From positions 1 to 64,000 of the forward strand of contig CAZZIO010000035.1 in NCBI GenBank assembly GCA_964654465.1: a DNA stretch of 64,000 nt, written 5' to 3'. The notes beneath the pieces are model-generated. The model saw only the letters and a program-made list of their open reading frames with translations, was not told the DNA's origin and made no database searches. The first letter of the stretch is position 1. The number at the start of each line of letters is the position of its first letter. Of the stretch, positions 1 to 38,874 are shown in pieces. This DNA comes from an uncultured Dictyoglomota bacterium. Lineage in GTDB: Bacteria > Dictyoglomota > Dictyoglomia > Dictyoglomales > Dictyoglomaceae. The position numbers and the translations under genes are program-made.

Positions 1-17
1 ATGAAGGAAGAGGAGGC

Positions 18-135
18 TACTGGTGATTAGAGCGGAGGGGAAACGCCCGTTCCCATTCCGAACACGGAAGCTAAGCCCTCCAGCGCCGATGGTACTGCCC
101 TGGCAACGGGGTGGGAGAGTAGGTCATCGCCAGAG
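18..135 (+). rRNA. rrf: 5S ribosomal RNA
   Basis: Canonical 5S motifs CCCATTCCGAACACGGAAGCTAAGC, GCCGATGGTACTG and GGGAGAGTAGGTCATCGCCAG; terminal helix CTGGTGA/TCGCCAG. Ends are approximate. Confidence 0.97.
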
Positions 136-151
136 AGCCTCCTCTTTTTTT
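136..151 (+). terminator. Closing stem and U-tract downstream of 5S (AAGAGGAGGCT 8-18 pairs with AGCCTCCTCTT 136-146)
   Basis: 11-bp inverted repeat enclosing the 5S gene, followed by a T run. Confidence 0.6.
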
Positions 152-206
152 GATCAGTGTAAATTATTTCTGTTATTATTTTTAATCAATTTTAAAATTA
201 GGAATC

Positions 207-235
207 TTGACAAAAAATTTTTAAAATGTTAGTAT
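207..235 (+). promoter_or_regulatory. Sigma70/SigA promoter TTGACA-N17-TAGTAT with extended -10 TG
   Basis: TTGACA 207-212, TG 227-228, TAGTAT 230-235; predicted start near 241-242. Confidence 0.75.
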
Positions 236-240
236 TATTT

Positions 241-328
241 CAAAAAGAATTTGTTAAGAACCTTTCCAGGCGAGGGTCCCCTTCCCCCCTCACCCATCAC
301 CCCCTACCTCGCCTGGAAAGTTCTTTTA
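241..328 (+). ncRNA. Candidate sRNA or leader: 14-bp GC-rich stem with a 31-nt C-rich loop
   Basis: CTTTCCAGGCGAGG (262-275) pairs with CCTCGCCTGGAAAG (307-320); loop GTCCCCTTCCCCCCTCACCCATCACCCCCTA; promoter upstream and TTCTTTT downstream. Confidence 0.5.
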
Positions 329-359
329 ATTAATATATGCAAAAAGGGAGGAGTTTAAA

Positions 360-878
360 ATGAAAAAAATGATGAAGAATAATAGATTTTTAAAAATTTT
401 TTTAATGATTATATTATTTGTCCTATTAATTCATACATCTTACTCAATAGCCAATATAGGAGAAAATGAAAAAGCTATAGATTTTTCACTTAAAGATCTA
501 AAGGGGAAAAATTATAGGCTTTCTGATTTTAAAGGGAAAGTTATTTTATTAAATTTTTGGGCTACATGGTGCCCTCCATGTAGATATGAAATGCCGTTAT
601 TAGATAAGCTATACAAGGAACATAAAAATAAAGGATTTGAAATAGTGGCTGTTAGTCTAGACTCCAATCCTAAAAATGTTAATGATTACTTAAAGAATAA
701 TCCAGTTAGTTTTACTATTCTTTCTGACAGAGAAGGAAAAGCAGGATATACATATCAAATTGTAGCTATACCAACATCTTTTTTAATTGATAAAAATTTT
801 ATTATAAGAAAAATTTATTTAGGAATTATCTCAGAAAAGGATATTAAAAAGGAATTGGAAAAATGGCTAAAAAAGTAA
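360..878 (+). CDS. TlpA/ResA-family thiol-disulfide oxidoreductase (membrane-anchored)
   Basis: N-terminal hydrophobic anchor; LNFWATWCPPCRYEMP and AIPTSFLID motifs. Confidence 0.92.
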   Translation: MKKMMKNNRFLKIFLMIILFVLLIHTSYSIANIGENEKAIDFSLKDLKGKNYRLSDFKGKVILLNFWATWCPPCRYEMPLLDKLYKEHKNKGFEIVAVSLDSNPKNVNDYLKNNPVSFTILSDREGKAGYTYQIVAIPTSFLIDKNFIIRKIYLGIISEKDIKKELEKWLKK

Positions 879-1003
879 TTATAAGATTTTTTATATTCTT
901 TCTTATATTCCTTTTTTTGACTATTGGTATTTATATGGGAGAATTTTATGAGATCTATAGAAATAGTATTATTTTGTGTTTATCTTGTATAGGTATTCAA
1001 TAA
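863..1003 (+). CDS. 46-aa membrane CXXC protein (CD1871A-like), not in the ORF track
   Basis: Translates MAKKVIIRFFIFFLIFLFLTIGIYMGEFYEIYRNSIILCLSCIGIQ; one TM helix, C-terminal CLSCIGI; overlaps the end of tlpA. Confidence 0.8.
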   Translation: MAKKVIIRFFIFFLIFLFLTIGIYMGEFYEIYRNSIILCLSCIGIQ

Positions 1004-1551
1004 TTATTAGTAAAAATAATCTTTTTCTCTGAAATAATAATATCAACTTTTTGATCGTAAGGATCTTTTGGAAGTTCATTAATGATTAAATCGTCAAAGG
1101 TTAAACCTATTTTTATACCTCTTTTAATGTTGCTTAAAAAACGATCATAGTAACCTTTACCATAACCTATTCTATAACCTTTAACATCAAATGCAATTCC
1201 AGGTACTACAATAATATCGAACAAGTTATAATCTATTTCATAAATCTCCTTAGGTTGCAGTATACCAAATGGACCTTTTTCTAAATCATTAATTGTCTTA
1301 ATTTCTCCAAATTTTAAGTCTTTACCAAAGATAACGGGGCAAAATACTCTTTTGTTTTCTACAAGAGCATGATAAATTATGAACCTTGTATCTACCTCAT
1401 CTTTTATAGAGACATAAGTGTTAATTATAGATGCTTTTCCCCAAATAACTAAATTCTTCAGCTTATGAAAAATTTCATGAGATTTTACCTCTTTATCTCT
1501 TATATTCCTTCTTTTTTCTAAAAATATCTTCCGCAATTCTTTTTTATCCAT
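997..1551 (-). CDS. 5-formyltetrahydrofolate cyclo-ligase
   Basis: DIIVVPGIAFD..GYRIGYGKGYYDRFL motif. Confidence 0.95.
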   Translation of the reverse strand: MDKKELRKIFLEKRRNIRDKEVKSHEIFHKLKNLVIWGKASIINTYVSIKDEVDTRFIIYHALVENKRVFCPVIFGKDLKFGEIKTINDLEKGPFGILQPKEIYEIDYNLFDIIVVPGIAFDVKGYRIGYGKGYYDRFLSNIKRGIKIGLTFDDLIINELPKDPYDQKVDIIISEKKIIFTNNY

Positions 1552-1600
1552 TTATATAACCTCTTTTCTTTTTTTAGTTTATATATTATAATCCAAAAAA

Positions 1601-1692
1601 GCCTGCAGATCTTTAGGATCGCGGGACAATATCAATAAATATCAATATAAATAGTCAAATCAAAAAAACGGCATCCCTTGTTGGGGAGCCGG
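1601..1692 (+). promoter_or_regulatory. pan-motif-like RNA leader (two hairpins, each with a bulged A)
   Basis: CCTGC-A-GATC..GATC-GCGGG (1602-1625) and CGGC-A-TCCC..GGGA-GCCG (1669-1691); TATAAT at 1587-1592; lies upstream of pantothenate genes. Confidence 0.65.
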
Positions 1693-1707
1693 AAGGGAGG
1701 TATTAAA

Positions 1708-2433
1708 ATGTTTAAAAACATCAAAAAAATCTCATTAGCATCTCTTTTTGTTGCAATTACCCTCTTATTAGGTTTTTCACGTATAGGCTATATATCCCTA
1801 CCAACACCAGCAGGTGCTGCAACAATAATGCATATTCCAGTGATATTAGCAGGCATTGTTATGGGACCATGGTTTGGAGCCTTAGTAGGTAGCATTTTTG
1901 GCATTTCTGCAGTTATGTATTTTTCCCATATTGCTCCTTTCTGGGTGCTTTTTCCTGCAAGACCTTTTATTGGTATTGTTTCAGGTCTTGTTTATAATTT
2001 TCTCTTATCCTTTTTTAGGTCTCAAAAGAAGCTTAAAAACTCTACCGCTTTTATTATCTCTTTTGTAGTTTTCTCTTTCGCATATCTTAGTGGTGTCTAT
2101 ATCATGAGAGAGTGGTTTACAGAAAGCCTTATTAATTACTCTTTAGAATTTAGTTTTTTAATAGCTTTAATCTCTTTTATCATAGCTTTTTTAATTTTAT
2201 TTATAATAAAAGAAAAAGAAGGAGAAATAGTTGCCATTGGAATAGCATCCTTCTTAGGAAGTATGACTAACACTGTGGGAACTCTTGGTCTTGCAGCAAT
2301 TTTTAAAATTTTCCCATTAGGAGTTATTATATCCATAGGAATTCTTCATGGTATTCCAGAAGCAATTATCGCGTCAATAATTTGTCCACCTATAGTTGTA
2401 TTATTAAAAAGATTAATTAAGGAGAGTGCATAG
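1708..2433 (+). CDS. panT: ECF transporter S component, pantothenate type
   Basis: IGYISLP..ATIMHIPVILAG, TNTVGTL and GIPEAII motifs; SD GGGAGG before ATG 1708; adjacent to coaX. Confidence 0.85.
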   Translation: MFKNIKKISLASLFVAITLLLGFSRIGYISLPTPAGAATIMHIPVILAGIVMGPWFGALVGSIFGISAVMYFSHIAPFWVLFPARPFIGIVSGLVYNFLLSFFRSQKKLKNSTAFIISFVVFSFAYLSGVYIMREWFTESLINYSLEFSFLIALISFIIAFLILFIIKEKEGEIVAIGIASFLGSMTNTVGTLGLAAIFKIFPLGVIISIGILHGIPEAIIASIICPPIVVLLKRLIKESA

Positions 2434-2436
2434 GGT

Positions 2437-3204
2437 ATGCTTTTAACTATAGATATCGGCAATTCAAATATAGATATAGCTTATTTTAAAAAAAATAAAA
2501 TTATATCTCATTATGAATTTGAGACTAAGAAATACTCTACAAGCTATGAATATTCACTACTTATTGAATGGACTCTAAAAAGAAATGGGATCTCCGAGGC
2601 TAAAGTAGAAGGTATAGCTATATCTTCTGTAGTTCCATCTCTTACCTCAGTTTTTGTTGATGCCATAAGATATATCTTCAATTATTCTCCTTTTGTTGTA
2701 GAACCAGGAATAAAAACAGGAATCTCCATAGAGACAGAAAACCCCAAAGAGGTAGGTTCAGATCTTATATGTAATGTGGTTGCTATTCAAGAAGAGTATG
2801 GTCCAGTTGGAATAGCTATAGATTTTGGCACAGCAACTACTTTTTCTGCTATAGAGAATAAGAAATTTTTAGGAGTAGCTATAGCACCGGGCGTAGGGAC
2901 GGCATCCTACGCCCTCTTTGAAAAAACCGCTAAACTTCCTCAAGTAGATATTAAAGCTCCAGAATCTTCCTTAGGAAAAAACACTATATCTGCAATTCAA
3001 GCAGGAATAGTTTTTGGGTTTGCAGGACTTGTTGATGGAATTTTAGAAAGACAAATATCAGAAATGAATGGAAATCCTGTTCTTATAAGTACTGGTGGTT
3101 GGGCTAAAAGAATAGTACCTCATTCAAAATACCTTAAATTAGAAAATATTGATCCTTATCTTACTCTTAAAGGACTTTGTTATCTTTATAAAAAAAACCT
3201 GTGA
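2437..3204 (+). CDS. coaX: Type III pantothenate kinase
   Basis: LLTIDIGNSN, EVGSDL, IDFGTATT and TGG motifs. Confidence 0.95.
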   Translation: MLLTIDIGNSNIDIAYFKKNKIISHYEFETKKYSTSYEYSLLIEWTLKRNGISEAKVEGIAISSVVPSLTSVFVDAIRYIFNYSPFVVEPGIKTGISIETENPKEVGSDLICNVVAIQEEYGPVGIAIDFGTATTFSAIENKKFLGVAIAPGVGTASYALFEKTAKLPQVDIKAPESSLGKNTISAIQAGIVFGFAGLVDGILERQISEMNGNPVLISTGGWAKRIVPHSKYLKLENIDPYLTLKGLCYLYKKNL

Positions 3205-35846: not shown

Positions 35847-36090
35847 AAAATAAAAGCTTCTCAACCACAACAAGGATGAGAAGCTCCCACGGTACCACCT
35901 TTATTGCCTTAAGATAATTATACTTAAGGCCTCTCTTCTCTTTAACGCAGAGATACGTGAAATCCTACTAAAAGTTTCAGATTTCAAGCTCCGAGGCGAG
36001 TTCTATAGACCGCAACACCAGGTCACACCAACCCCCTGGCTCTCTGTAAAATATGCAAATCTACATACTGCTCCTCTTCATCGCCTTTGA
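35847..36090 (-). promoter_or_regulatory. T-box riboswitch, Leu (CUC) specifier
   Basis: Minus strand: AGTA box, CAGAGAG, GGTGTGA, GAA-CTC specifier, T-box AAAGGTGGTACCGTG, terminator AGCTTCTCA..TGAGAAGCT-TTTATTTT. Confidence 0.93.
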
Positions 36091-38296: not shown

Positions 38297-38313
38297 CCTT
38301 AGGGGGTGATGGT

Positions 38314-38874
38314 ATGAAAAATAAAAGAGAAAAAGGACAATCCTTAATTGGAGTGGTAATTTTTGCTATAATTTTGATGGTTCTTGTCTTAGGAGCAACA
38401 GGAGCAACAGTGTTAAGTTTTACCTTAAATAAAAGATTGAAAGATAGAGCTGAAGCTCAAGACATAGCTAAAAACATCATAGAAACAATTAAGGTTTGGT
38501 CTGGGAATAGTCTTGATAACTTTTTATCTTTAAATGAAAATGAAAAGCAGAATGTCCAAGGGGCGATCCCAGCTATTCCAACAATATGTCCAGCTATTCC
38601 AGCTGATCCTTCAGGTGGTGATATGATCTATACACAATTCATGAGCATACCTCAAGTAAATGGATCTCCCAAATATGCTGTACAATTTTTAATTAAGGAT
38701 TACTATCAACCTGGAACTTCCACAGTCATACTAAAGAGAATTACAATTAGGGTATATTACACAAAAAGAGATGGAAAAACTGATACCAGTTTCCACAAGC
38801 CAGGACCTGGAAGTCCACCAAAAAGATATGAAAATCCATTAGCTGAAATTGTAGGAGTTATTTCAAGGCCATGA
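38314..38874 (+). CDS. PilV-like minor pilin
   Basis: KG|QSLIGVVIF prepilin-like site lacking E5; A..IA..IIE helix; KRITIRVYY. Confidence 0.75.
   Translation: MKNKREKGQSLIGVVIFAIILMVLVLGATGATVLSFTLNKRLKDRAEAQDIAKNIIETIKVWSGNSLDNFLSLNENEKQNVQGAIPAIPTICPAIPADPSGGDMIYTQFMSIPQVNGSPKYAVQFLIKDYYQPGTSTVILKRITIRVYYTKRDGKTDTSFHKPGPGSPPKRYENPLAEIVGVISRP

Follow-up and report, generated by a model that had tools for sequence, protein, structure and literature searches.

The window considered here, the whole stretch of DNA that was analysed, is the first 64,000 nucleotides (nt) of contig CAZZIO010000035.1 from the assembly GCA_964654465.1 of an uncultured Dictyoglomota bacterium. Its left end carries, between a 5S rRNA gene that closes an rrn operon and a gene for a ResA/TlpA-like protein (tlpA), a long-stemmed hairpin that displays a C-rich loop of 31 nt (Table 1). 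On comparative grounds this element is a structured RNA read from the + strand, it is an undescribed element outside all described families, and it probably acts by pairing, or by being bound, through its C-rich loop. Eleven species were compared, that of the window (G000) and ten other Dictyoglomota genomes (G001-G010), which fall into three genera, g1, g2 and g3, the last of these with five genomes that include G006, G007, G009 and G010.

Table 1. Features at the left end of the window (positions are those of the window)
Feature	Position	Strand	Basis
5S rRNA gene, one of two in the genome, end of the upstream rrn operon	19-135	+	Rfam RF00001, 96.4 bits
3' half of 5S processing stem (AGCCTCCTC with GAGGAGGCT at 10-18), then T7; terminator-like rrn end	136-153	+	sequence reading
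Sigma-70-type promoter TTGACA-17-TAGTAT; TTGACA 207-212, TAGTAT 230-235, TG before the -10	207-235	+	10/12 score
Hairpin 5' arm: outer AAGAAC, bulged C, core TTTCCAGGCGAGG	256-275	+	folds at 37 and 75 °C
Single-stranded C-rich loop of 31 nt, GTCCCCTTCCCCCCTCACCCATCACCCCCTA, four U-C(A)-C-tract units	276-306	+	unpaired in minimum free energy (MFE) structure at 75 °C, 11/11 leaders
Hairpin 3' arm: CCTCGCCTGGAAA, then GTTCTT	307-325	+	folding, pair counts
Shine-Dalgarno sequence (SD) GGGAGGAG of tlpA-like gene, ATG at 360	346-353	+	sequence reading
ResA/TlpA-like exported thiol:disulfide oxidoreductase, WCPPC, 172 amino acids (aa)	360-878	+	Pfam AhpC-TSA 6.9e-32, Redoxin 7e-31
Single-pass membrane open reading frame (ORF) of 46 aa, overlaps tlpA stop (ATGG), ends LCLSCIGIQ; operon gene two	863-1003	+	ORF reading

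A preliminary description of this DNA had listed the promoter, a 14-bp stem, the 31-nt loop, a TTCTTTT run, the SD and the minus-strand G tracts, all of which were found again at the same positions. The promoter is the best of 12 promoter-like sites in a scan of window 1-1700, and the spacer between the end of the 5S gene and the hairpin is AT-rich. The TlpA-like protein reaches 142.7 bits against the NCBIfam ResA subfamily, under the cut-off of 170, and the small membrane ORF that follows it reaches 23.1 bits against the CD1871A CXXC family, again under the cut-off (32). A C-terminus of the LCLSCIGIQ type can be read downstream of tlpA in each of the 10 loci inspected and is kept across the phylum, and the small protein may be a membrane redox partner of the TlpA-like protein.

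The stem of the hairpin is a perfect, G+C-rich run of 14 bp (262-275 with 307-320). Alternatively 13 inner pairs and, beyond one bulged C, 6 outer ones (256-261 with 320-325) can be drawn, which makes up to 19 bp, and because the stem extends to 19 pairs most of TTCTTTT (321-327) belongs to it rather than to a free U-tail. The loop holds tracts of four, six, three and five C and consists of 22 C and one G among its 31 nt. Folding of the + strand gives an MFE of -33.3 kcal/mol (z -3.07, with 0 of 200 shuffles as good) and the minus strand has no excess folding (z +0.41). At 75 °C the hairpin is part of the predicted MFE structure of all 11 leaders (-7.5 to -13 kcal/mol), with both the loop and the SD open. 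The element had been called atypical for an AT-rich region and its composition is indeed exceptional: the genome has 31.7% G+C and only 11 loci with at least 18 C (or G) per 31 nt, the hairpin loop being one with 22.

That the element is an RNA, and on which strand, can be read from the way in which its stem has changed. For 16 stem pairs in the 11 sequences 96.2% of cells hold standard pairs, as against 25-61% when the partners are slid by one to three columns. Three pairs have changed on both sides, for example from G-C to A-U in G005 and G010, and on the + strand every one-sided change in the 13 inner pairs turns a C-G or a U-A pair into a U·G wobble; read from the other strand, or formed as a cruciform, the same positions would mismatch as C·A. 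Because the compensatory changes and the U·G wobbles fit only that reading, the element is read as a + strand RNA; the strand evidence consists of small numbers, about three independent events, and the orientation of promoter and gene, like the unequal folding of the two strands, points the same way. An operator made of inverted-repeat DNA, which would account for the compensatory changes, was rejected on the strength of the one-sided U·G changes.

The same observations bear on the suggestion that the tracts form a G-quadruplex or i-motif. The tract pattern is certainly present, since the minus strand reads G5-G3-G6-G4, a canonical match to four tracts of at least 3 nt with spacers of 1-7 nt lies at 278-304 and is one of five in the 1.9-Mb genome, and G-tracts of at least 3 nt are found in all 11 genomes. 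A DNA element that acts on transcription or replication through a cruciform, with a G-quadruplex on the template strand and an i-motif on the coding strand, is nevertheless very improbable: in the second arm of the cruciform the one-sided stem changes would give A·C mismatches, the bases between the G-tracts are conserved as well although a quadruplex does not require them, the minus strand lacks excess folding and the wobble pattern favours RNA.

In the searches made the hairpin was found only in this phylum, and there in every genome of the sample. Searches with a covariance model built on the 11 Dictyoglomota sequences gave exactly one + strand match in every one of the 11 genomes (85-99 bits), the hairpin being unique within G000, and this single-copy state rules out a dispersed repeat or mobile element; a further, weak match to the model in G009 is an ordinary small-loop hairpin. 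BLAST with window 140-420 as query, run against 41 genomes of which 30 belong to other families, covers the hairpin in all ten other genomes of the same family, in g3 with a match restricted to the hairpin, and the 30 other-family genomes gave no match over the hairpin, only short AT-rich ones. When a strict loop pattern was sought over ~185,000 species (one genome each) it was found in six Dictyoglomota records and in one Caldilineaceae stretch, which is a stemless C-rich run without a model match. None of 80 metagenome loci with TlpA-like proteins (31-51% identity, from other phyla and without Dictyoglomota) matches the hairpin model, and only one of them has any long-stem hairpin with a C- or G-rich loop, which lies 3' of the gene.

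An Rfam 15 cmscan of window 1-3000 with E-values up to 10 returned nothing that overlaps 200-360, and at gathering thresholds the whole window yields only the 5S rRNA and a T-box leader (35869-36090 on the - strand, 149.5 bits, above the gathering score). The literature searched on Dictyoglomus small RNAs and Dictyoglomi RNA motifs, which extends to the article PMC2864571 and stops short of its supplementary files, contains nothing on the hairpin. The two database checks proposed in the preliminary description have therefore given no described family and a single-copy element that recurs in ten of ten relatives with a covarying stem and a conserved loop.

In the ten relatives the identity of the 55-nt core to the copy in the window is 93-100%, against 44-84% for the adjacent TlpA protein. 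Across the phylum the changes in the loop are limited to the length of C-tracts (+2, -1), one A>C and, at the first loop base, one G>A or deletion of the G. A small coding ORF is ruled out, as any reading frame would be shifted by the indels in the loops of G005 (+2 nt), G010 (-1 nt) and G006 (-1 nt). Judged from these alignments the hairpin is under unusually strong selection, the loop itself included, and since it evolves more slowly than the adjacent protein gene something specific must read the loop.

The hairpin is always found between one of two 5S genes and the ResA/TlpA-like operon. G000, G001 and G003 have two 5S genes each and one hairpin only, the other 5S copy of G001 being followed by a T-run and a convergent gene, and the hairpin is thus not tied to rRNA operons as such. 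A TlpA orthologue follows it in all 11 genomes and is intact in 10; in G006 the frame breaks after the signal-peptide region, so that the gene is a pseudogene there or its assembly is faulty. The hairpin core lies 17-48 nt ahead of the tlpA start codon (17-22 nt in g3), and the stem base 2-25 nt ahead of the SD across the phylum, with 2-5 nt in four g3 genomes and ~11 nt in G009. A promoter-like site stands between the 5S gene and the hairpin in 8 of the 11 genomes, seven by scan and G002 by eye; the g3 hairpins lie 32-83 nt after the 5S gene, and no promoter-like site is present in the 32-43 nt that separate the two in G006, G007 and G010. A T-run follows the 5S gene in the five g1/g2 loci with available sequence and in none of the five g3 loci. 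As the T-run is lacking throughout g3 and the promoter-like site in three of its genomes, the g3 hairpin and tlpA, a protein-coding operon, are probably read through from the rrn operon.

This layout bears directly on the proposal that the element is an independent, trans-acting small RNA (sRNA) of ~88 nt with its own promoter and with the hairpin as an intrinsic terminator. What stands of the proposal is a structured + strand RNA with an exposed and conserved C-rich loop; the discrete, terminated ~88-nt transcript is distinctly unlikely. The promoter is near-consensus in g1 and g2 (10-11 of 12) and the few U that follow the g1 hairpin might permit partial termination, but only two or three of these are left once the outer stem is paired (UUAAUUAAU, UUUAUAAGG), there is no U-tract after the hairpin in any of the five g3 genomes and a terminator scan of window 1-1700 returned no terminators. 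The hairpin does not have the form of an intrinsic terminator, given the 31-nt loop, the lack of a g3 U-tract and the negative scan, and the missing promoter-like site in G006, G007 and G010 also speaks against the independent sRNA. Furthermore, an 831-nt metatranscriptome contig from a relative covers window 128-741 and 820-1003, taking in the 5S end, hairpin, tlpA and small ORF, and a 151-nt contig spans window ~185-354, so that both supposed ends are run through. These contigs come from two RNA-library runs with small shares, and being contigs only they are silent on ends, strand and level; DNA carry-over is possible and their uncovered parts are uninformative.

It had alternatively been suggested that the hairpin is a tlpA leader whose loop pairs with the gene's own SD. 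The location before tlpA holds in all 11 genomes, but the proposed pairing is not supported. Duplexes between the loop and ribosome binding sites (RBSs) were predicted at 70 °C for 1187 windows (-40 to +6) taken from ORFs of at least 100 aa that carry an SD-like motif, and the RBS of tlpA itself reaches only -5.3 kcal/mol, rank 475 of 1187. Short matches do occur, CCCCUAC with GUAGGGG in G008 and CCCCUA with UAGGGG in G002, but the tlpA SDs vary by species (GGAGG, GGGGAGG, GGAGAAAGG) and the loop is fixed. In four g3 genomes there are only the 2-5 nt noted above between the 16-bp stem and the SD, and helix geometry would then imply that the SD cannot reach the loop. We consider a pseudoknot of loop and SD that closes the tlpA RBS extremely improbable. 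A leader that sequesters its SD, or an RNA thermometer, was rejected both on that rank and because at 75 °C the SD is left unpaired in the predicted fold of each of the 11 leaders.

The C-richness of the loop, together with its place behind an rrn operon, could also be accounted for by the termination factor Rho, if a rut-like loop served as a loading site or insulator at which Rho attenuates read-through into tlpA from the rrn operon or from the strong promoter. The genome has a gene for Rho (601 bits, cut-off 509), stretches with 22 C and one G in 31 nt are very rare in the genome, the g3 genomes have no terminator after the 5S gene and in three of five no promoter before the hairpin, and the loops of a second hairpin family in g3, which is described below, vary in sequence and remain C-rich. 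Rut sites, however, are degenerate, unstructured and usually 60-90 nt long, for which this loop is short, and a role of this kind would leave unexplained both the exact conservation of the non-C positions and the 16-bp stem directly 3' of the loop, as well as the presence of the element at only one of two rrn operons, which makes it unlikely.

The resemblance of the loop to the anti-Shine-Dalgarno sequence, which was central to the preliminary description, is real but statistically weak: ATCACCCCCT in the loop matches the tail of a congener's 16S rRNA, GGATCACCTCCTTTCT, at 9 of 10 positions, a match that is equalled by 786 of 20000 composition-preserving shuffles. The loop segment AUCACCCCCUA is the perfect Watson-Crick complement of the G5-type SD UAGGGGGUGAU, at which the 16S tail needs a G·U pair, and among the 681 strong-SD ORFs of G000 about a fifth (150) use GGGGG and 541 use GGAGG. 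The SD form UAGGGGGU(GAU) is likewise frequent in G000 and would make a G·U pair with the 16S tail and a perfect complement with the hairpin loop. The element moreover lies in, or just after, the rrn 3' trailer in all 11 genomes. These features could be combined in a "super anti-Shine-Dalgarno" decoy that competes with the 30S subunit for a subset of mRNAs and couples rRNA transcription to translation, which would be a global regulator of an undescribed kind; we regard this as quite improbable.

The interpretation that we favour, with a probability of roughly 0.35 and by analogy with RNAs such as RsaE or 6C, is that of a riboregulator embedded in a leader, whose C-rich loop pairs with G-rich RBS regions of other mRNAs. 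The G+C-rich stem of 13-19 bp would stay closed at growth temperature and keep the 31-nt loop open, and the loop would be the working part, forming G-C-rich base pairs with RBS regions of other mRNAs. Its carrier would be an mRNA leader (in one genus, probably the 3' trailer of the rrn operon) and not a separately terminated sRNA. Pairing would then take place in the cell and repress translation, with the hairpin either released or active whilst still within the mRNA. RNAs of the RsaE/RoxS and 6C kind do not depend on Hfq, and no Hfq was found in G000, the assembly of which is 99.97% complete.

The leading candidate target would be the RBS of a stand-alone Clp_N-domain gene. Both a genome-wide duplex scan and the RBS scan indicate the RBS of this monocistronic gene, which starts at about G000:C40:214890 and encodes a 139-aa protein with two Clp_N repeats (Pfam 1.9e-30); the RBS reads GGTGATGGGTAGAGGGAGGG-N8-ATG and is complementary, with two bulges, to CCCCCCTCACCCATCACC of the loop. 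It ranks first of the 1187 RBSs at -20.96 kcal/mol, the runner-up having -16.0, and shuffled loops reach this energy on the Clp_N RBS in 0 of 2000 trials (mean -12.0, sd 2.1). Orthologues of the gene occur in G000, G002, G003, G001 and G005, all five of which keep TGATGGGT and a G-rich SD, and against the loop of their own species the orthologous RBSs give z scores of -4.5, -4.1, -3.5, -3.4 and -2.1. Elsewhere in the 11 genomes the motif TGATGGGTN{0,2}RAGGG is matched only by the hairpin's own antisense and once at G010:C5, a match that was set aside as it lies inside a coding region, as compared with two matches for a reversed-pattern control. In further controls the RBSs of full-length ClpC were not complementary to the loop in any of nine cases (z -0.07 to +0.97), the 16S tail ranked the Clp_N RBS 500th, and the energies of the loop and of the 16S tail were only weakly correlated (r = 0.21). 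At the level of the sequences, the complementarity between the loop and the Clp_N RBS is specific and is conserved in five of five orthologues.

Several observations weigh against regulation of other mRNAs by the loop. The Clp_N-only gene is missing from all five g3 genomes, in which the loop is equally conserved, and the search of g3 found no ungapped complement of at least 16/19 nt other than the element's own antisense. Genome-wide significance is modest, with shuffled loops reaching -20.96 kcal/mol on any RBS in 2 of 80 trials, and there is no excess of loop-complementary 8-mers around start codons (210 hits versus 169 +/- 55 for shuffles, with 19 of 100 shuffles as high). Since the loop is invariant it affords no compensatory test of intermolecular pairing. 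The only RNA-library evidence consists of the two contigs described above, which span the hairpin and its flanks and neither of which resembles an ~88-nt species. Finally, extended SDs that serve the 16S tail would account just as well for the perfect complements of 12-13 nt at other RBSs. Perfect or near-perfect complements of 13 nt at the RBSs of a pilin-like gene (window 38300), a binding protein and FabZ are conserved in some pairs of orthologues, but being plain extended SDs they do not discriminate and were dropped as candidates.

The first of these, TAGGGGGTGATGG, is a 13-nt perfect complement of the loop at window 38300-38312 (+), where it lies at the RBS of a prepilin-like gene that starts at 38314, and it is kept in the G003 orthologue. 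The strongest non-self duplex of the genome-wide scan, at -26.8 kcal/mol, is formed with the G-rich 3' untranslated region and terminator of a 46-aa secreted-peptide ORF (G000:C4:20063-20117, - strand), which is complementary at 15 of 16 positions to the 5' part of the loop and the stem top; it was dropped because it is not conserved, with a weak match in only one of the ten other genomes.

A further point against action on other mRNAs is that the hairpin is always 17-48 nt from the tlpA start and that a second family of hairpins also stands directly before an ORF, a fixed position that fits a cis role at least as well. The second family occurs in all five g3 genomes (for example at G010:C3:70276-70330) and has a long stem of 14-15 bp and a C-rich loop of 29-33 nt. 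Immediately upstream of it is a conserved TTG-N17-AGTATAAT promoter, and its stem shows one compensatory change, in G006. In G007 and G009 it lies 14-16 nt before a gene for a membrane protein of at least 505 aa without an obvious SD; in G010 the ORF looks degraded and a superoxide-reductase-like gene is nearby.

In such a cis role a C-specific RNA-binding protein, for example a multimer that reads the four UC(A)C-tract units, would bind the loop as an operator and control the translation or stability of the tlpA-CXXC mRNA, and the second family of C-loop hairpins would share the regulon. An operator bound by such a protein, or by Rho, is in our view nearly as likely as pairing with other mRNAs. 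It would account for conservation of the whole 31-nt loop, which exceeds the needs of one pairing site, and for the organisation of the loop as a four-fold quasi-repeat with a period of 6-7 nt. It also accords with the presence of the hairpin ahead of tlpA in all 11 genomes, where 2-25 nt lie between stem base and SD, with the contig of a relative that bridges hairpin and tlpA, and with the occurrence of a second, non-alignable long-stem hairpin 14-16 nt before the g3 membrane-protein ORF. The linkage to tlpA is however inherited, and not independent evidence, because the phylum is small and its members keep the same local gene order, and an occluding operator would hardly be expected to vary about ten-fold in its distance from the SD. 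Moreover no candidate protein has been identified, and an operator leaves the specific and conserved complement in the Clp_N untranslated region unexplained.

The closest functional parallels to a pairing loop are found amongst the C-rich-loop sRNAs, the likeness to which is one of analogy. RoxS is linked to redox, and with RsaE/RoxS and RNAIII of the Firmicutes the element would share an exposed C-rich motif directed at G-rich SDs, a host in which Hfq was not detected and, here, a redox-related neighbourhood. These RNAs differ in that they have several small loops or linkers, whereas the present element has one 31-nt loop in an mRNA leader, no conserved terminator and no Rfam match, and belongs to another phylum. 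The 3'ETS-leuZ RNA of E. coli is a sponge for sRNAs that derives from a tRNA operon. The g3 hairpin resembles RNAs of the 3'ETS type in that it may be cut from an rrn primary transcript (32-43 nt after the 5S gene and without a promoter in 3 of 5 genomes), and differs from 3'ETS-leuZ in both the tRNA-operon origin and the action of the latter as a sponge.

In the available text of PMC6486639 the hairpin loops of 6C, an RNA of Actinobacteria, are described as binding several mRNAs by G-C pairing without RNA chaperones. The likeness, as far as that text goes, is a C-rich hairpin loop suited to G-C pairing; 6C itself stands alone, has two C-rich loops and occurs in high-G+C hosts, unlike this single loop in a leader of an AT-rich thermophile, which has no sequence or Rfam similarity to it. 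C-rich loops of the RNAIII type (UCCC) are discussed as a general signature of sRNAs in the portion of PMC4615179 that is available, and the cuckoo (RSs0680) sRNAs of Alphaproteobacteria are presented there as stem-loops with the anti-Shine-Dalgarno-like loop motif CCUCCUCCC. The stem-loop with such a motif is common to both, but cuckoo RNAs are multi-hairpin, multi-copy and bound by Hfq, and the Dictyoglomota element is a single-copy, single hairpin whose loop agrees with the 16S tail in only 9 of 10 positions. Dictyoglomi-1 (RF01703) is the sole phylum-specific RNA motif found in the literature searched, to judge from the available text of PMC2864571; it is a different element, 236 positions long and located in the present genome at G000:C58:6575-6819 (170 bits), and does not match the hairpin.

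The Dictyoglomota are deep-branching thermophiles of hot springs for which almost no RNA biology is on record. If the loop does pair with RBSs, a further phylum, and one that grows at 70-78 °C, would join those with chaperone-free regulation by C-rich loops, and the seed could ride on an mRNA leader or on the trailer of an rRNA operon. Together with two further candidates, one of them the second hairpin family, the hairpin suggests a small and unexplored repertoire of regulatory RNAs near thiol and oxidative-stress genes, and because there are two such C-rich candidates the display of C-rich loops on long stems is a recurring design in the phylum.

The other of these candidates, at G000 C46:6129-6339, is a unit of ~190 nt with a TTGACA promoter-like site, a C-rich 3' domain that contains CACCTCC and a canonical terminator formed of a hairpin plus U7; a search of Rfam gave no match to it. 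It is present in five g1/g2 genomes, being ~80% identical in G003, G001, G004 and G005, with partial similarity in the g3 genome G009, and its C-rich 3' domain is 100% invariant.

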